Shown piece by piece: positions 2 through 59,419 of a stretch of DNA of 59,554 bases. The stretch is from positions 1 through 59,554 of the forward strand of contig JBDRMG010000043.1 of assembly GCA_043812495.1 (NCBI GenBank). The letters are read 5' to 3'. The DNA is from Candidatus Omnitrophota bacterium (lineage in GTDB: Bacteria; Omnitrophota; Gorgyraeia; Zapsychrales; JBDRMG01). The notes below the pieces were generated by a model. The model saw nothing but the letters and a program-made list of their open reading frames with translations, ran no database searches and was not told the origin of the DNA. Numbering within the stretch: the first letter of the stretch is position 1; each line of letters begins with the position of its first letter. A program made the position numbers and the translations under genes.

Positions 2-118
2 TTCTTTCATTTCTTGCGTTATCTCTTTCGAGAGCAAAGCCTTTCGATACTTCACTGGCAAGACCAAATGATAGTGGATTTGGTAAGCGCAATGATATCC
101 TTTGTGTACTTGTCCCAT
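2..118 (-). mobile_element. tnpA: IS200/IS605-family Y1 (HUH) transposase TnpA, N-terminal 39 codons, running off the window edge
   Basis: Hand translation of the minus strand from ATG at 118: MGQVHKGYHCAYQIHYHLVLPVKYRKALLSKEITQEMKE, matching the IS200 TnpA N-terminal pattern H-x-x-Y-x-x-x-Y-H-x-V-x-x-x-K-Y-R. Not in the ORF track. Confidence 0.85.
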
Positions 119-3062: not shown

Positions 3063-3229
3063 TTATTCTACTTCGCATAACCAATGGTAACGATGATATA
3101 TGTCCTTCTTCGTAGCCTTGGCAAAGGAGACCTTCGTAGAATATTCCTGCCTGCCGGCAGGCAGGCTCGTCAGAATAATTCTCCGAAGCCTGTACCATTA
3201 TGTTCCATTAGTAAGGCGAAGGAGAATAA
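3063..3229. repeat. Dispersed MITE-like repeat, family A copy 1, with two nested palindromic inserts
   Basis: Terminal inverted repeats TTATTCTACTTCGC ... GCGAAGGAGAATAA (13/14 match). Near-identical backbone at 48648-48765. Confidence 0.85.
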
Positions 3230-3265
3230 AGGAAGGATCGCAAAAACAATGGCCACTTTTTCTGA

Positions 3266-6880: not shown

Positions 6881-6895
6881 AGCATTTCTCCTTTT

Positions 6896-7070
6896 AATGA
6901 GGTCTGTACTTATGGAACGGCAGTGCCCGCTAATTTCTTTAAAATTTAGCGAGGTCTCGTCAATTCGATTTCATCGAATTGACGGAAACATAAGTGCATG
7001 ACCGAATTAACCCCGCCCGCCACCGAATCAATGGCGGGCGGGGATGAAGCAAATACGATGATGCTATTTC
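6896..7070. repeat. Family B modular two-stem repeat, copy 1
   Basis: AATGAG...ACTTATG[hairpins]CATAAGT...GAATTAACCCC[hairpin]GGGGATGAAGCAAAT...TATTTC. Homologues at 31765, 36468, 42532 and 59354. Confidence 0.85.
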
Positions 7071-10633: not shown

Positions 10634-10757
10634 TCATTTGAAAAGGTTCTTTCTTATTTAGGATGGATGAAAGAACCTGGGCCATTCAATCTTTTTATCA
10701 TCTATTTGTCTTTCTTAAAGTTATGAAGTATTTATCAATCTCAATAAAAATGGCCCA
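10634..10757. repeat. Family C double-inverted-repeat element, copy 1
   Basis: AGGTTCTTTC-15 nt-GAAAGAACCT then TGGGCCATT...AATGGCCCA. Near copy at 25153-25276; expanded copy at 49454-49660. Confidence 0.85.
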
Positions 10758-15800: not shown

Positions 15801-15863
15801 ATTGACCCCGCCCTTTTGGATTTGTTGCAGCAATAGCCTGATATCCAAAAGGGCGGGGTTAAT
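15801..15863. repeat. Long GC-rich hairpin, family D copy 1
   Basis: 21-bp stem ATTGACCCCGCCCTTTTGGAT / ATCCAAAAGGGCGGGGTTAAT; related to 42806-42879. Confidence 0.8.
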
Positions 15864-15970
15864 GCTTCGATTTTACTCAGCACTCCTTCGATGAAAGCAC
15901 CATGAGCCATGTCGAAGGGTTCCGGCAGCCCCGCTTCTTGCTTTCGCAAAAAAGCAGCGGGGCGCCGTCA

Positions 15971-16363
15971 TTAATAATTCGCGATTTTCGCACTTAAGAC
16001 AACTTTTGTCTCCGCTGAATCAGGCGGCCAGTCACTCGCATTTTCATCGACCCAAACCGTTGCTTCAACGACCTTGAGATTTAAAATGTCTATAGGACCA
16101 TCGGCCGAATATACAATACGAAATTTGTAATTTCCCTCTATCACTCCCTCTTGATAAGAAGGTGTTGTAAAATCATTTTTTAAAAGCTGAATCTCCTCCT
16201 CCATCTTTTGCTGCGCGAGATAAAGACATTTGATTTCTCCTTCTTGCCTTTGGCTCATGATCAACGTGCTCTGAATCAGCCCGATCACGGGAACGATCAT
16301 GATAGACAATATGACAATCGCGCCCAAAACTTCAATTAACGTAAATCCGTTTTTTTTCTTCAT
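15971..16363 (-). CDS. Minor pilin (PilV/GspI-like)
   Basis: KNGFTLIEVL prepilin cleavage/methylation motif. Confidence 0.85.
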   Translation of the reverse strand: MKKKNGFTLIEVLGAIVILSIMIVPVIGLIQSTLIMSQRQEGEIKCLYLAQQKMEEEIQLLKNDFTTPSYQEGVIEGNYKFRIVYSADGPIDILNLKVVEATVWVDENASDWPPDSAETKVVLSAKIANY

Positions 16364-22561: not shown

Positions 22562-25117
22562 TTAAAGCCTCCCTATTTTCTTCATCAATTCTTTCTGCGT
22601 GGTCCCGTCATCGGGGAATGTGACCATCTTGGCAATGATTTGTATCTTTGAGCCAAGACCTTGCGACGCCAAATACTCTTCGATATCCTTGATCATGCGT
22701 CCCGCCACCAGAGGCGCGTTTTCTTTTGTTGTTAAAGGCAGCATCATCAGGATCGCATCTGTGCTCTTCAGGACAAGATCGGCTTTTCGCCGCAGGCTTT
22801 TTCTGATTATATCATTAAAATGAGCAAGCACATCCTGTGTTTTTTCTTTTCCCAGGGTTTTCTCAACCGTTAAGAAGTTTGCTATCTCAAAAACGATCAG
22901 GGACAGGGATTCTCTGAACCGAATGGCTTCTTTGATGCCATTGGTAACATATTCTTCGAAGGCCTGATCCACCGAAATTCTGGGTAAGTCAAAGATAAAT
23001 TTTGTTCCCTCATTGAGTTTGCTTTCGACCTTGATGTGCCCGCCGTGTAGTTCAATGATCCCTTTGCAGATCGATAAGCCCAATCCCGTTCCTTTGCCTC
23101 CGGGCCCGTAAGGCCGGTCAAATTGCTCAAATTTTCCAAAGACCTTGGGTAGGTTTTCTTCGGCAATCCCGCGGCCCGTATCCTCAAATTGACATTCAAG
23201 GGCGCGTTCCTTATCCTCTAGGGAAATCCCGATATATCCTTTTTCCGTGAAATTCAACGCATTATCCATAAGGCTCTCGAACACTTGGGTGATTCTCTCA
23301 TGATCAAGAAAAAGTTCAATATTATCGTGTGAAAACTGAGTCTTGGCTTGCAGTCCTTTTTCCTCGCAGGACAAGCGATACTTCTTGACAACTTGCCGAA
23401 CAAGATCCGTCACGCTGACCATGACGCGGCGCAAGGTAATTTTTTCAGCTTCTAAGTTGGAAATATCTAATAATTCGTTGACCACATGCCGCAGGCGGTC
23501 AATCCCTTCAAACGACATATGCAGATATTCTTTCTGCTCATCGTTGAGTCCGCCGTGCATCTCCTCGAGCACCTGACTAACGCCCTCTTGAATAATCGTC
23601 ATGGGAGTGCGCAGTTCATGGGAAACCGTGCTGATAAAATCGGACTTCAACTGATCGAGCTTGCGGATTTCCTCTGTTTTGCCTTCAAGTTCGCGCAACA
23701 ATTCTTTGTTCTTGCGGTCTTTTTTAGCCAACTCAAAAAGAAGCATATCCCGTTCTTCCTTGTCTTGACGCAATCGGGATATGGGTTGCAGGTCATCCGA
23801 TGATTCGCTTTTCGTTTCTTGAGTTTTGATGGTTTCATCAAAAATATTTTTTTCTTCCCTGAGTCCCTCAGCTAAATCAACCTTCTGAAGCAATTCCTTT
23901 GCGGTTTGGCCGTCTTCTGGAAAATTCGCGACCTTTTGAGAGATATCAATGACCTTGTCCATATTTTCTTGGGTCAAATATTGAAAAAAACTATTCTGGA
24001 TTCTTGCCGAAAGCATCAGGGCATCCTTTTTCTCTGTCTGTGTCAGAACCATGAGAATCGAATTCTTCCCTTCGAGTGACAAATCAGCCTTGCGTCGAAG
24101 GTTGGTTTTGGCAATCTTGCGCAAGCCTTCAATCATCAAGGACAAACGTGCCCGATCCATATTATCAAACGCCTGCGCGGCATTTTGGATATGAAAGACG
24201 ACAATCGACAAAACACCTTTTTGGCGACTGGCGTTTTTGATGCCACTACGCACATATTCCTGAAATATCTGCTCCACAGAAAGTTTTGGCAACGTGAATG
24301 TAAATGTTGTTCCCTTGTTGACTTCGCTTTTGACTTTGATCTGACCTCCGTGCAGCTCGACAATTCCCTGACAAATCGATAAGCCCAGGCCCGTTCCTTT
24401 CTCTTTTGTCAGGGCCGACTGGTCAAATTTCTGAAATTTCCCAAAGACCAAGGGCAAATTTTCCTTCGCGATGCCGAACCCCGTATCCGCGACGCTGCAG
24501 ACAATCACATCGTTTCTGTCCAAAACGGACAAAGCGATCTGTCCGGTTTGAGTAAATTTAAAGGCATTGCCGATGAGATTGATAAAGACCTGAATGATCT
24601 TGTCGCGGTCAACATAGAGCTCTATGTGTTCTTTGTTGAATTCGGTTTTGATGTTCAAGCCAAGATCTTTCGCTTGCGGAAGAAAGGTCGTTTTGACGCC
24701 TTTGACTAAATCGACTATGTCTACGGCTTCTCGACGAATGTCGGCTCTTTCCGCTTCGAGGCGGGAGATATCCAAAAGATTCTCAACGATTCTACGCAAG
24801 CGGTCAATATCCGACAGCGACATGGACAAAAATTCTTTCTGTTCCTGCGTCGTGACTCCCAGAAGGCCCTCCAAGACCTGATGAATCCCTTCGCGAATGC
24901 TCGTTAAGGGCGTGCGCAATTCGTGAGAAACGACAGAAACAAATTCGGATTTCGCTTCGGCAAATTTCTTGAGCTCCTCATTTTTCTTTTCCAGCTCTCG
25001 ATAAAGAACCCTGATCCCTTCGTTGGTCTTCTTTAAACCGACTTGGGTATATTCGGCTTCTTTCTTGAGCTGCTCGATTTCTTTTTCAAGATCTTGAATA
25101 TGTGAATGTTCGCTCAT
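22562..25117 (-). CDS. Tandem (HisKA-HATPase-degenerate GGDEF)x2 histidine kinase
   Basis: Two H-boxes (SHELRTPL, SHELRTPM), two complete N/G1/F/G2 sets, two GGDEF-like folds with RRKAD; no TM helices. Confidence 0.85.
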   Translation of the reverse strand: MSEHSHIQDLEKEIEQLKKEAEYTQVGLKKTNEGIRVLYRELEKKNEELKKFAEAKSEFVSVVSHELRTPLTSIREGIHQVLEGLLGVTTQEQKEFLSMSLSDIDRLRRIVENLLDISRLEAERADIRREAVDIVDLVKGVKTTFLPQAKDLGLNIKTEFNKEHIELYVDRDKIIQVFINLIGNAFKFTQTGQIALSVLDRNDVIVCSVADTGFGIAKENLPLVFGKFQKFDQSALTKEKGTGLGLSICQGIVELHGGQIKVKSEVNKGTTFTFTLPKLSVEQIFQEYVRSGIKNASRQKGVLSIVVFHIQNAAQAFDNMDRARLSLMIEGLRKIAKTNLRRKADLSLEGKNSILMVLTQTEKKDALMLSARIQNSFFQYLTQENMDKVIDISQKVANFPEDGQTAKELLQKVDLAEGLREEKNIFDETIKTQETKSESSDDLQPISRLRQDKEERDMLLFELAKKDRKNKELLRELEGKTEEIRKLDQLKSDFISTVSHELRTPMTIIQEGVSQVLEEMHGGLNDEQKEYLHMSFEGIDRLRHVVNELLDISNLEAEKITLRRVMVSVTDLVRQVVKKYRLSCEEKGLQAKTQFSHDNIELFLDHERITQVFESLMDNALNFTEKGYIGISLEDKERALECQFEDTGRGIAEENLPKVFGKFEQFDRPYGPGGKGTGLGLSICKGIIELHGGHIKVESKLNEGTKFIFDLPRISVDQAFEEYVTNGIKEAIRFRESLSLIVFEIANFLTVEKTLGKEKTQDVLAHFNDIIRKSLRRKADLVLKSTDAILMMLPLTTKENAPLVAGRMIKDIEEYLASQGLGSKIQIIAKMVTFPDDGTTQKELMKKIGRL

Positions 25118-25152: not shown

Positions 25153-25276
25153 TCATTTAAAAAGTTCTTTCTTATTTAGGGTCAATGAAAGAACCTGGGC
25201 CATTCAATCTTTTTCATCATCTATTTGTATTTCTTTAAATTATGAGATATTTATCAATCCCAATAAGAATGGCCCA
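25153..25276. repeat. Family C element, copy 2
   Basis: Colinear with 10634-10757; ends 1 nt before the receiver stop codon. Confidence 0.85.
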
Positions 25277-31747: not shown

Positions 31748-31764
31748 TATTAGTCTTTCCTCTC

Positions 31765-31948
31765 AATAAGGCCTGCGCTTATGGAATGATAATGCCCGCT
31801 AATTTTCTCAGAATTAAGCGAGGTCTCGTCAATTCGATAGAATCGAATTGACGGAAACATAAGTGCATGGCCGAATTGACCTTGCCCACCAAAATTGTTA
31901 AACAATTTTGGTGTGGCGGGGATTAAGCAAATGCAACTATAATATTTC
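31765..31948. repeat. Family B modular repeat, copy 2
   Basis: Same scaffold as 6896-7070; same first-arm sub-hairpins, different second apical hairpin. Confidence 0.88.
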
Positions 31949-36447: not shown

Positions 36448-36467
36448 GGGTCCTATCCATCCCTTTC

Positions 36468-36598
36468 AATGAGACCATGACTTATGGACGTCCCGTAAAA
36501 AGCGGGGCTAACATAAGTCATAAGGCCGAATTGACCCCGAGCTCACCATTGATTCAGTGGCTAGCGAGGGGATTAAGCAAATTAAATTATAATATTTC
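36468..36598. repeat. Family B modular repeat, copy 3 (minimal form)
   Basis: ATGACTTATG/CATAAGTCAT stem, GAATTGACCCC...GGGGATTAAGCAAAT. Confidence 0.85.
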
Positions 36599-36601
36599 CT
36601 T

Positions 36602-37639
36602 TTATTCTGCGAAAAAGACTTTCGCAATCTCATATAGATCCATATTAACGGTCTTACGCGTTTCGATCGCTTTAGAAATATCAATAAATCGTATGCGGTT
36701 GTTGTGCAAACTCACCATTTTCCCGAACTTGTTGTCTCTCACCAATTCCACAGCCTTGACACCAAAACGTGTGGCGATCACGCGGTCGAAAGCGCTGGGT
36801 GATCCTCCTCGCTGGATATGCCCCAGAACACTCACGCGCGTTTCATAATTTGTTTCCCGAGAAATGATGCGCGCAAGGATTTCTCCGATACCGCCAAAAC
36901 GACGATGCCCAAATTCATCTAATTCTTCTTTGATTTTCGCCTCATTCTCTTGACCCTGTATTTCTACGCCTTCGGAAACAACGACAATGCTGAATGTTTT
37001 TCCTCTCTTATGTCGACTTCTTAAGGCCTCGCATATTTCTTTAACATTCACTGGGATTTCCGGAATCAAAATCATATCGGCTCCGCCGGCGATTCCCGAC
37101 TCCAGGGCAATCCATCCGGTATATCGGCCCATGACCTCAATGACAATAATACGGTGATGGCTTTCGGCCGTTGTGTGAAGGCGATCAATGCATTCGGTGG
37201 CTACGTTCACCGCTGTATCAAAACCAAACGCGTAATCGGTACCGTTGAGCGCGTTATCAATGGATTTCGGAACGCCCACGACGCGAATAACACCTTTTTG
37301 ATGAAGGGTATAGGCCACACGAAAGGTATCTTCCCCTCCGACCACAATTAAGGCATCAATGCCGCTGCGCTTATAGTTTTCTTTGATTTTCTTTATATGC
37401 TCCGGATTGTGCAGTGGATTGATACGGCTTGTCCCGAGAATGGTTCCGCCCCGATCAAGAATTCCGGACGTCGCCTTGAGATCCAGAATTCTCATATCAT
37501 TTTCAATCAGACCTTCCCATCCGTTCTTGATTCCCGTAACGACGTAGCCTTCTTGAAGGCTTTTGCGAACGACGGCACGAATGACGGAATTCAATCCCGG
37601 GCAATCGGCCCCACCAGTCAAAATCCCAATCTTTTTCAT
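36602..37639 (-). CDS. pfkA: 6-phosphofructokinase
   Basis: TGGADCPGLN, GGTILGTSR, PKSIDN, EVMGR, LGHIQRGG. Confidence 0.95.
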   Translation of the reverse strand: MKKIGILTGGADCPGLNSVIRAVVRKSLQEGYVVTGIKNGWEGLIENDMRILDLKATSGILDRGGTILGTSRINPLHNPEHIKKIKENYKRSGIDALIVVGGEDTFRVAYTLHQKGVIRVVGVPKSIDNALNGTDYAFGFDTAVNVATECIDRLHTTAESHHRIIVIEVMGRYTGWIALESGIAGGADMILIPEIPVNVKEICEALRSRHKRGKTFSIVVVSEGVEIQGQENEAKIKEELDEFGHRRFGGIGEILARIISRETNYETRVSVLGHIQRGGSPSAFDRVIATRFGVKAVELVRDNKFGKMVSLHNNRIRFIDISKAIETRKTVNMDLYEIAKVFFAE

Positions 37640-42517: not shown

Positions 42518-42531
42518 TGTAAGCCTCCTTC

Positions 42532-42879
42532 AATGAGCGCATCACTTACGGAACGAGCGGAACGTGAGTGACGTAAGTGATATTCGCGAATTGAATCCCC
42601 ACACCAATTTGACGGCATGGGAATATTTTTAATTAATGGTTTAGACACAATGAGACCGTTTTCTTCGAACTTAGCGTTTCATGTCAAATTGGTGTGGGGG
42701 TCTAAGTCTGCCTCAAACTTACGTCTTTCACTAGCGCTCAATCCGTAAGTTTTTTCCTCCTAAGACCTTCTTTAATGAGCCCACCTTTGAATCAATGGCG
42801 GGCTCATTGACCCCGCCTTTTTGGCGGATCTTCACAAATTATTATTTTCCTCGCCTCGCCAAAAGGGCGGGACGCCGTC
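42532..42879. repeat. Cluster of at least five hairpins including family B copy 4 and family D copy 2
   Basis: ATCACTTACG/CGTAAGTGAT; CCCCACACCAATTTGAC/GTCAAATTGGTGTGGGG; AAACTTACG/CGTAAGTTT; AATGAGCCC/GGGCTCATT; CCCGCCTTTTTGGCG/CGCCAAAAGGGCGGG. Confidence 0.88.
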
Positions 42880-48647: not shown

Positions 48648-48765
48648 TTATTCTACTTCGCATAACCAATGGAAACGATAGTATATGCTTCGTAGAATAT
48701 TCTCTTCAGAATAATTCTCCGAAGCCTGTACCATTATATTCCTTTAGTAAGGCGAAGGAGAATAA
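48648..48765. repeat. Family A MITE-like repeat, copy 2 (without inserts)
   Basis: Same terminal inverted repeats and backbone as 3063-3229. Confidence 0.85.
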
Positions 48766-49418
48766 ATCATTTCCATATTGAAAATTTTAGAAAAACCGCG
48801 GATCATTTCTTTCTTGACCAAAGCACACTCCGTGGGTTGTCCGCACAAAGAATGCATGGTGGTCATGGCTGTATCCAGACCGCACGGCTTGATCATTGAA
48901 AAATAGTTTAGGTCGGTATTGACGTTGAGGGCCAATCCGTGAAACGTCACCCACTGGCGAACGCCGATACCGATCGAAGCGATCTTGCCTTTTGGGGTAA
49001 AGACACCTCGTTGTCCGTTCCTGCGGAAAGCGACAATCGCAAAGGACAATAACGCGTCCATGACCACCTGCTCCAATTTTTCCATATATTCCTTAAGGTC
49101 CTTACGCCATAACTTTAAAGGAAAGATCGGATAGATAACCATCTGACCCGGACCATGAAAAGTAACCTCTCCTCCCCGATTCGTGCGGATAATATCTATT
49201 TTGTTCTTCATGATTTTCTCTTGAGGCCGCAAGAAATTTTTCTCTGAAGCCAGTCGCCCCAAAGTAAAAACTGGCGGGTGCTCGCAAAAAAGCAATTGCG
49301 GTTGTTCCTCTCGGACAACATCCCCAAGAATCTTGAGCTGATGACCATAGGCCTCTGGGTAAGAAATAAGACCGAAGTCCATGACCCGACACTTGATCGC
49401 AGTAGCAACATTCATCAT
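48744..49418 (-). CDS. lipB: Octanoyltransferase
   Basis: EHPPVFTLGR, RGGEVTFHGPGQ, KIASIG, HGLALN, PCG. Confidence 0.96.
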   Translation of the reverse strand: MMNVATAIKCRVMDFGLISYPEAYGHQLKILGDVVREEQPQLLFCEHPPVFTLGRLASEKNFLRPQEKIMKNKIDIIRTNRGGEVTFHGPGQMVIYPIFPLKLWRKDLKEYMEKLEQVVMDALLSFAIVAFRRNGQRGVFTPKGKIASIGIGVRQWVTFHGLALNVNTDLNYFSMIKPCGLDTAMTTMHSLCGQPTECALVKKEMIRGFSKIFNMEMIYSPSPY

Positions 49419-49453
49419 GTAGAGTTATTTTATCAGAAAATCGCAAAAATAAA

Positions 49454-49660
49454 AAAAGGTTCTTTCTTGTTTAGGGTGAATGAAAGAACCTGATTCCAGA
49501 GATTATTAAGTGATTAAACAGATTTGGTTTCCGGCGATATCAATAAATCTGTGTAATCAATTTTATAATCATTGTCATCAGGGCCATTCAATGATTTTTG
49601 CTATCTAATCTTGTTACAATAGATTATGAATATTCCTTCATCCTGAATAAGAATGGCCCA
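49454..49660. repeat. Family C element, copy 3, with an 89-bp hairpin insert
   Basis: Both family C inverted repeats present, separated by the extra segment 49492-49580. Confidence 0.8.
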
Positions 49661-59353: not shown

Positions 59354-59419
59354 GAAATATTATTAATGTATTTGCTTAATCCCCAGCCCGCCACTGAATC
59401 AATGGCGGGCGAGGTCAAT
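59354..59419. repeat. Family B half-copy in reverse orientation, directly upstream of secY
   Basis: GAAATATTAT...ATTTGCTTAATCCCC-AGCCCGCCACTGAATCAATGGCGGGCG-AGGTCAAT, the reverse complement of the right half of copies 1-3. Confidence 0.8.

Follow-up and report, generated by a model that had tools for sequence, protein, structure and literature searches.

Hairpin DNA repeats of an Omnitrophota contig belong to a phylum-wide family with covarying stems and a probable link to small GIY-YIG nuclease cassettes

We analysed a 59,554-nt stretch of DNA (the window), contig C43 of a 1.94-Mb draft genome of an Omnitrophota bacterium (66 contigs, 44.5% G+C). The original prediction, made from the letters of the window, had described four intergenic copies and a reversed half copy (59354) of a two-stem element, "Family B", and all five lie where it had placed them. 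A full copy begins with a long imperfect stem that we call the clamp; directly 3' of it stands a palindrome that opens with CCC and closes with GGG, the second hairpin, followed in copies 1-3 by a short tail. The four full copies are all on the plus strand, between minus-strand housekeeping genes. They are gene-less members of a previously undescribed hairpin DNA repeat family that is found throughout Omnitrophota. We put at roughly 0.6 the probability that Family B is a non-coding, non-autonomous mobile DNA hairpin repeat linked to small GIY-YIG nuclease cassettes, not an RNA gene. The parts in the window are as follows, with scores in bits referring to R1, a covariance model built from clamps of this genome.

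6894..7010, plus strand: clamp of copy 1, TTAAT-GA-GGTC-TGTACTTATG ... CATAAGTGCA-T-GACC-GA-ATTAA, R1 35.5 bits
~6916-6990, plus strand: apex of copy 1, an insert of ~75 nt with two hairpins that includes CGTCAATTCGAT-TTC-ATCGAATTGACG
7011..7043, plus strand: second hairpin of copy 1, the CCC...GGG module CCCCGCCCGCCACCGAATCAATGGCGGGCGGGG
7044..7070, plus strand: tail of copy 1, ATGAAGCAAATACGATGATGCTATTTC
31763..31879, plus strand: clamp of copy 2, TCAAT-AA-GGCC-TGCGCTTATG ... CATAAGTGCA-T-GGCC-GA-ATTGA, R1 33.7 bits
31880..31921, plus strand: second hairpin of copy 2, CCTTGCCCACCAAAATTGTTAAACAATTTTGGTGTGGCGGGG
31922..31948, plus strand: tail of copy 2, ATTAAGCAAATGCAACTATAATATTTC
36466..36534, plus strand: clamp of copy 3, TCAAT-GA-GACC-ATGACTTATG ... 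CATAAGTCAT-AA-GGCC-GA-ATTGA, with a short apical hairpin
36535..36571, plus strand: second hairpin of copy 3, CCCCGAGCTCACCATTGATTCAGTGGCTAGCGAGGGG
36572..36598, plus strand: tail of copy 3, ATTAAGCAAATTAAATTATAATATTTC
42530..42594, plus strand: clamp of copy 4, TCAAT-GA-GCGC-ATCACTTACG ... CGTAAGTGAT-AT-TCGC-GA-ATTGA, R1 60.2 bits
42597..42699, plus strand: second hairpin of copy 4, 103 nt, inverted ends CCCCACACCAATTTGAC ... GTCAAATTGGTGTGGGGG around an interior of ~70 nt
42700..42766, minus strand: apparent degenerate second clamp of copy 4, TCTAAGTC..., read by eye and as a weak R1 match (42715-42752, 18 bits)
42771..42849, plus strand: variant element near copy 4, read directly, TTAATGAG-hairpin-CTCATTGA with fully complementary arms, then CCCCGCC..GGCGG and a tail-like CAAATTATTATTTTCC
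59354..59414, minus strand: reversed half copy, tail and CCC...GGG hairpin without a clamp, adjoining the start of secY

Copy 1 lies between genes for a MazG-like protein and a pseudouridine synthase, copy 2 between a metallophosphoesterase and an ATPase, copy 3 between a SIS-domain protein and phosphofructokinase (PFK), and copy 4 between a type II dehydroquinase and a DUF1844 protein. The stem pairs quoted in the prediction read back as TGTACTTATG/CATAAGTGCA (with one T:G mispair), TGCGCTTATG/CATAAGTGCA (one G:T), ATGACTTATG/CATAAGTCAT and ATCACTTACG/CGTAAGTGAT. The two-hairpin apical insert is common to copies 1 and 2, which share CGTCAATTCGAT-nnn-ATCGAATTGACG with the loops TTC and AGA, and the CAAAT...TATTTC tail is present in copies 1-3 and in the reversed half copy, as had been described. 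Copy 4 has no tail; together with its reverse clamp, recognised from the 18-bit match and by eye, it may form a convergent doublet, and the interior of its second hairpin occurs in the opposite orientation on contig C66. Elsewhere in the window (15801-15863 and 15921-15975) a solo CCCC...GGGG palindrome stands between ATTGA and TTAAT, that is, between clamp feet without clamp bodies; beside it are a second CCCCGC hairpin and then CGCCGTCATTAAT, the reverse of a clamp left arm.

Stem 1 is paired, as the prediction held, and it extends further than the prediction had it. The clamp is a 19-bp stem with the layout T-N-AAT / GA / 4 bp / 10 bp ... 10 bp / 1-2 nt bulge / 4 bp / GA / ATT-N'-A, in which the 10-bp helix ends in CTTAYG and CRTAAG. 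The bulge is found on the 3' side only, and the GA/GA internal loop is symmetric; the conserved unpaired letters are those of this loop, and the ends are T-N-AAT and ATT-N-A. The apex is bracketed by G-A ... G-A(A) and ranges from a GAA triloop, in a 47-nt element, to one or two extra hairpins, with clamp lengths of 47-120 nt. The tail that follows the CCC...GGG palindrome has 27 nt, ATTAAGCAAAT-N-CAATTATAATATTTC, and is present in ~50-70 copies of this genome. The usual form elsewhere in the phylum is symmetric, clamp(+), CCC-hairpin, clamp(-); most copies of this genome are a single clamp with a tail, the tail standing in place of the second clamp.

When folded as DNA, either strand takes up this architecture, and the energies are close (for copy 3, -21.1 and -19.9 kcal/mol, z ~-4). 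Copies 1 and 2 reach z ~-9, and the clamp of copy 1 folds at -45.4 kcal/mol (z -9.3). The GA/GA loop, which is TC/TC on the other strand, and the one-sided bulge are the sole strand-specific features; copy 3 scores 65 bits against R1 on the plus strand and 17.6 bits on the minus strand. In attC sites and IS608 ends, asymmetry within a palindrome marks the strand that is recognised as folded single-stranded DNA (ssDNA). By analogy with these, and with the cutting of a single strand reported for the nuclease Ssn (PMC11893778), the asymmetry of loop and bulge in an otherwise perfect palindrome suggests a mark of the strand that is recognised in this form.

The prediction had listed four copies and a half copy; they belong to a family that is not a small one. 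A genome search for AATRA ... KAATTDA with pairing between the two returned ~121 clamps, and R1 finds 118. In an alignment of 60 genome copies, 98.1% of the cells pair, versus 75.7% in shuffled alignments and ~30% with slid partners, and 13 of the 19 pairs have changed on both sides (268 cells). In two of the 60 the long apical inserts around the real arms were trimmed by hand; only the loops are artificial there, and the pairs are real. Since the catalogue had required pairing in the inner 14 pairs, two independent checks were made. The outer pair N/N', which the search had not used, is C-G in 56, T-A in 35, A-T in 21 and unpaired in 9 of the 121 clamps; and when only the inner helices served to define clamps, 102 were obtained, 90 with GA/GA and 88 with four or five of the five outer pairs. 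Covariation in a larger set had been named beforehand as a test of the idea that pairing rather than sequence is kept in the stems. We assembled such a set with a sequence-only pattern, no pairing required, over 185,579 species genomes, followed by R1 on 80 of the resulting loci. In the 110 clamps obtained, from ~75 other genomes, 96.3% of the cells pair, all 19 pairs have changed on both sides and the covariation score is 0.535 versus 0.164 in shuffled sets; none of 500 shuffles reached the observed value on any measure.

Several lines of evidence indicate that this pairing is kept by compensating mutations at the level of DNA, not RNA. A structured non-coding or cis-regulatory RNA, the first option of the prediction, would suit the strong covariation, the GA/GA tandem loop (a common RNA motif) and the position of many clamps within operons, where they are necessarily transcribed. 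RNA helices tolerate G:U pairs, not A:C, yet G:T and T:G mismatches are not in excess over A:C and C:A (26 versus 21 in this genome, 33 versus 37 across the phylum). Nor does orientation follow transcription: among the 121 clamps of the catalogue, by counts that rest on crude gene calls, 58 are antisense to the genes on both sides versus 33 sense to both; convergent genes flank another 14 and divergent genes 5, and 3 are within open reading frames (ORFs). Adjacent clamps form palindromic doublets, 17 convergent and 0 divergent at the 80 loci of other genomes, with spacers mostly of 25-95 nt; the closed genomes G184 and G178 have doublets too. A search of the whole window against Rfam release 15 gave only tRNA-Gly at gathering scores, and with thresholds relaxed copy 1 reached no more than 17.6 bits, where gathering scores are 34 or higher. 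Promoter-like sites are not enriched (20 found versus 21.3 expected from shuffles); terminator-like sites are likewise at chance level. As the prediction had said, the element is not a terminator. Together with the insertion-like presence and absence set out below, these results make an RNA family very improbable. The other of the two alternatives offered, a BIME-like platform collecting REP modules or an ssDNA element, fits. We also considered the TATAAT of the tail as a general promoter and rejected it, as it is promoter-like only at copy 3 and the sites of the region are not above shuffles. At copy 3 (36586-36613, minus strand), TATAAT of the tail and TTCGCA of the PFK 3' end make a 10/12 promoter-like site that faces the SIS gene.

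Of the 41 genomes of this order, 35 gave clamps with R1, each of the 41 having between 0 and 118 copies. In a phylum-wide sample of 301 Omnitrophota genomes from 207 genera, clamps were present in 188 genomes and 136 genera, the counts per genome in this sample being lower bounds (at least the number found). Matches in the scan of public genomes were almost exclusively labelled Omnitrophota, and three viral pattern matches in IMG/VR included no clamp by the model. The prediction had proposed a comparison of orthologous junctions for empty sites, and the junction of copy 3 provided it. Synteny of the PFK and SIS genes holds in 16 of 17 relatives, and in 14 of these 16 the junction is empty, with only 5-25 nt from stop to start, versus 154 nt here, where copy 3 (36466-36598) fills the gap. 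An exact-protein look-up with the SIS protein, made for strain-level empty sites, gave no match on record. Empty doublets, in which GAATTNA would be joined to TNAATTC and which might be cassette targets still free, gave no convincing case in this genome (two chance-like matches). The tail variant, the one described in the prediction, is present in 50 copies here within 3 mismatches, 9 of them identical over 30 nt, and in none of 40 relatives (a reversed-pattern control also gave 0), which indicates a recent burst in this genome.

Apical and second-arm hairpins are interchangeable modules, as the prediction had proposed. Seven host clamps of different subfamilies carry one and the same guest, a TAAAT-CGGC clamp with a CCTCGAGCG hairpin, and its position is identical in all seven, directly after ...NNNN-GA. 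One clamp (at least 95% identity) precedes at least six unrelated CCC-hairpins, one CCC-hairpin follows different clamps, and second hairpins occur flipped between copies. The TAAAT clamp subfamily often abuts the 3' ends of tRNA genes.

Clamps sit between a stop codon and the ribosome-binding site of the next gene, and operons stay intact. Read outward from the clamp 5' end on the opposite strand, the consensus of the 121 copies is AAGGA (A in 76, A in 71, G or A in 59 and 41, G in 79, A in 64). A strict Shine-Dalgarno (SD)-like motif lies within 12 nt of the clamp in 42 of the 121, and by eye the start codon usually follows 5-9 nt on. The AARGA preference is seen in both gene contexts and is weaker where the neighbouring gene presents its 3' end; AARGA could be either a true end of the element or a preferred target.

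Gene-bearing relatives of the repeat were found as cassettes. On contig C5 of this genome the order is a clamp, CCCCCACACCAATTATT, a GIY-YIG gene of 84 codons in the opposite direction (24312-24563, minus strand), AATAATTGGTGTGGGGG and a reversed second clamp. The order clamp(+), inverted repeat, GIY-YIG ORF, inverted repeat, clamp(-) is found at at least seven loci in six genomes (G000:C5, G001:C18, G040:C32, G017:C24, G010:C13 twice, and L129). These cassettes have ~300 bp, and their sole gene encodes a single-domain GIY-YIG nuclease of 84-100 amino acids (aa), which at G001:C18 is a pseudogene with four stops. Four inverted-repeat families are represented among them, and three of the four (CCCCCACACCAATT, CCCAGCACTAATTTT and CCCTTGACATTTT) are found in two states: without a gene, as second hairpins of this genome, and enclosing a GIY-YIG ORF. 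The CCC...GGG second hairpins are the terminal inverted repeats of the ~300-bp cassettes, joined to each other.

The CCACACCAATT family, to which both the second hairpin of copy 4 and the 301-nt cassette of contig C5 belong, illustrates the size classes in this genome: 29-nt hairpins in 15 copies with loops either way, members of ~99 nt in 7 copies including copy 4, and one copy of 301 nt with the gene. Size classes of 29, ~99 and 301 nt resemble an autonomous element with its miniatures, which explains the range of the second arm, from a short hairpin to an insert of ~100 nt, that had been noted. Both the ~100-nt insert of copy 4 and the short hairpins lack the gene and share inverted-repeat families with the cassettes, so they may be read as internally deleted, MITE-like derivatives (after miniature inverted-repeat transposable elements). 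Homology of the ~70-nt interior of copy 4 to the nuclease gene is not demonstrable, and the deletion reading draws on the inverted repeats and size classes only. Seven CCACACCAATT members of 96-100 nt (on C1, C16 with three, C29, C43 and C66) are constant in length, and several of them have unrelated interiors.

Pfam gives 16 GIY-YIG matches in this genome; most fall in open frames 88-130 aa long, and 10 of the 16 lie within 1.2 kb of a tRNA gene. Among the 41 genomes of the order, clamp number rises with GIY-YIG number (Spearman coefficient 0.46-0.48, p ~0.002), as it does not with Y1-transposase number. The nearest solved relatives of the protein are the stand-alone UPF0213 proteins 1zg2 and 1ywl, then SLX1, and a search of NCBIfam gave no specific model. 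At G000:C29:12288-13330 and C51:7940-8300, small GIY-YIG genes beside tRNA genes form cassettes bracketed by duplicated tRNA segments: copies of the tRNA-Val 3' end on C29 and a repeated tRNA 5' half on C51.

To the observed abundance, covariation, insertion polymorphism, module exchange and gene-bearing relatives we add a proposed relation of enzyme to substrate and a proposed mechanism of copying, the likeliest in our view. While DNA is being replicated or repaired, the top strand would fold. The hairpin, together with the letters AATGA, CTTAYGG, CRTAAG and GAATT, would be recognised by the small nuclease or by some other structure-specific enzyme in trans, and this enzyme would nick at the hairpin foot or apex. 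Repair would copy the element into the nick, hairpins would gather at the apex between GA...GA and at the 3' foot, and modules would reassort in consequence. If the stems must fold to be recognised, as proposed here, this would explain the compensatory changes; and because the outer end of the clamp abuts AAGGA-like sequence, copies fit between a stop codon and a ribosome-binding site without splitting operons.

A number of points weigh against a mobile repeat that is linked to the nuclease. The source genome is a draft metagenome bin in 66 contigs, which limits sampling. The covariation counts overstate the number of independent compensatory events, because cells count sequences rather than events and subfamilies have been amplified. 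No consistent target-site duplication was found in the flanks of 41 tail-bearing copies or at the PFK-SIS junction; AAAGG stands on both sides of copy 3, and other copies have no such flanking repeat. The correlation of clamp with GIY-YIG counts among the 41 genomes is uncorrected for phylogeny. Only ~10-15% of the small GIY-YIG genes of the order are flanked by clamps, and most lie beside tRNA genes with other hairpins. Genomes G026 and G038, with 63 and 37 clamps, each have only two baseline GIY-YIG matches, so that the nuclease is either not obligatory or acts from a diverged gene. The two cassettes of G010 share inverted repeats and differ in their clamps; instead of forming one element with the cassettes, clamps could be what these target.

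In a stronger and more doubtful form of the proposal, the clamp would be the cis recognition structure of an unrecognised class of minimal prokaryotic mobile element whose sole protein is the ~85-aa GIY-YIG ssDNA nuclease. The enzyme would read a folded single strand, with GA/GA and the bulge marking the strand and the covarying stems giving the shape. Opening of hairpins at the apex or foot would produce the fixed hairpin-in-hairpin grammar and BIME-like mosaics, and with its AAGGA end, which resembles a ribosome-binding site, the element could settle in the narrow junctions within operons of these small genomes and cause no polar damage. It is unlikely that the clamp is a functional DNA or RNA element kept by the host and merely used by the cassettes as a landing site. 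Such an element might serve in operon junctions as a hairpin for mRNA stability or processing or, like BIMEs, bind a nucleoid protein or topoisomerase, and it would spread mainly by recombination or gene conversion while cassettes home into a repeated target. The persistence of the conserved letters across the phylum would agree with host function, as would the precise placement between stop codon and SD-like AAGGA, the avoidance of divergent promoter regions (5 divergent versus 14 convergent), the clamp-rich genomes without extra GIY-YIG genes, and cassettes of one inverted-repeat family between different clamps. The range of 0-118 copies within one order, the orthologous junctions that are empty in relatives, the genome-specific burst of identical copies, both orientations relative to transcription, and a guest clamp at one fixed position in seven different hosts all stand against it. 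All five point to selfish spread; later host use of clamps is possible.

A further candidate for moving the repeat is the set of Y1 tyrosine transposases of this genome, with the clamps as a REP/REPIN system. There are seven Y1_Tnp matches, three of them RAYT-like genes of 330 aa with long C-terminal extensions (G000:C2:46102-47079, C45:203-1198 and C4:1223-2215), and the architecture resembles REP doublets or BIMEs. Each of the three genes, however, is bracketed by inverted repeats of its own (GGGGACGTTGATGATAG... or GGGGTCAGGTCTCGAC...) with no relation to the clamp. In the 41 genomes the number of clamps does not track that of Y1_Tnp matches (rho -0.11), and G006 and G008 with 54 clamps each and G038 with 37 are all without a Y1 match. 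The clamps bear no GTAG or CGTC end tag, and no replication-strand pattern was seen along the closed 2.0-Mb genome G184, where clamps of both strands are intermixed. We therefore consider movement by RAYT-like transposases very unlikely. The window itself starts inside a Y1_Tnp (IS200-type transposase) match (2-88, minus strand), and contig C64 has, at its start, a full Y1_Tnp copy with a single in-frame TAG (G000:C64:87-449); a multi-copy insertion sequence probably broke the assembly at the window start.

The window has three further repeats. A different intergenic repeat of ~120 nt, with a hairpin GGTTCTTTC...GAAAGAACC and the end AATGGCCCA, has three copies of 65-92% identity (10638-10757, 25156-25276 and 49451-49660). 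Positions 3063-3230 and 48648-48766 share 93-95% identity (TTATTCTACTTCGCATAACCAATGG... and ...GGCGAAGGAGAATAAA) in a repeat with a CTTCG motif and an SD-like end. Within an 851-codon ORF on the minus strand (22562-25117), a 264-nt internal repeat has two copies of 71% identity (22920-23183 and 24225-24488).

A repeat that fills many operon junctions across an uncultured phylum, with ~120 copies in a 1.9-Mb genome, bears on how structured RNAs are found. The covariation of the clamp is strong enough to pass for a new RNA family in covariation-based discovery, and the comparison of G:T with A:C mismatches, together with orientation tests, is a practical way to separate a DNA repeat from an RNA family.

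Full-text literature searches gave no paper describing palindromic repeats in Omnitrophota, and among known systems REP, REPIN and BIME repeats with their RAYT transposases come nearest in behaviour (Bertels & Rainey 2011, PMC3116915; Nunvar 2010, PMC2817692; Di Nocera 2013, PMC3733652). Like them, the clamp family consists of short palindromic intergenic repeats in more than 100 copies, with inverted doublets that can fold into larger structures, module mosaics, positions between co-directional and convergent genes, compensatory upkeep of hairpins and no obvious target duplication. The REPIN architecture, two inverted repeats with a short spacer, is that of the convergent doublets at the 80 loci of other genomes. 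Tagged REP superfamilies have a palindrome of 20-40 bp, at one end of which GTAG or CGTC stays unpaired as a tag (PMC3733652), and the tagged families gave no match to the clamp; CGTC occurs only at the start of the separate apical module of copies 1-2, inside the stem there. Unlike REPs, the clamp has a much longer, bipartite stem (19 bp), an invariant GA/GA loop and a bulge, it nests insertions in hairpin apices and feet, and the gene in its gene-bearing relatives encodes a GIY-YIG nuclease in place of a Y1 transposase.

With MITEs such as Neisseria Correia/NEMIS and the Rickettsia palindromic elements, taken here from general knowledge, the family shares gene-less inverted-repeat derivatives that far outnumber the gene-bearing relatives, discrete size classes, insertion within operons and possible effects on transcripts. 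Terminal inverted repeats shared with a gene-bearing element are found in CCCCCACACCAATT, CCCAGCACTAATTTT and CCCTTGACATTTT. It differs from MITEs in that no consistent target-site duplication was found in the flanks that we inspected, in inverted repeats that are hairpins with covarying stems, and in a partner gene that is not a DDE transposase. The attC sites and IS200/IS605 ends, again from general knowledge, resemble the clamp in conserving structure over sequence, in the asymmetry of an imperfect palindrome that marks the folded ssDNA strand, and in a variable terminal structure. Unlike attC, the clamp has no R/L box consensus, integrase or cassette array, and the genes that flank it are housekeeping genes; unlike the IS200/IS605-derived PATEs, clamps show neither a replication-linked orientation pattern (G184) nor a correlation with Y1.

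The closest published gene-plus-repeat system is Ssn/NTS. Ssn is a 94-aa single-domain GIY-YIG nuclease whose gene is flanked by a hairpin repeat that is present in hundreds of copies; it cuts one strand of ssDNA only, next to the repeat, and its authors likened the repeat-gene-repeat layout to an insertion sequence (Chenal et al. 2025, PMC11893778). Both systems have a single-domain GIY-YIG protein of ~85-100 aa (84 aa for the contig C5 ORF), a nuclease gene flanked on both sides by a hairpin repeat (here at seven loci in six genomes), abundant gene-less copies, and asymmetric repeats in which one strand is marked. They differ in that the Omnitrophota flanks are two-tiered, with CCC...GGG inverted repeats and a separate, far longer clamp repeat of 55-65 nt. 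The best solved relatives of the Omnitrophota protein are UPF0213 proteins, and the likeness to Ssn is one of size, domain and layout; a place in the Ssn clade (cd10448) is possible. We know of no natural-transformation context for Omnitrophota, another difference from Ssn. The SRM motif HGTCWYN(0-2)YYVSBRHN(0-5)WNVSBRGN(0-2)RNCYNB has 7 matches in this genome versus 6-10 in five block-shuffled genomes, and none lies in a clamp. The clamp family connects a very regular, strand-marked DNA hairpin with tiny stand-alone GIY-YIG nucleases, a protein group in which only Ssn has been characterised (2025), as enzymes that cut ssDNA site-specifically and are of use in biotechnology. Should the Omnitrophota proteins recognise the clamp, they would be new ssDNA nucleases specific for structure plus sequence, and the family would offer a testable case for how REP-like repeats spread without a tyrosine transposase, the question that Di Nocera et al. 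left for CGTC REPs (PMC3733652).

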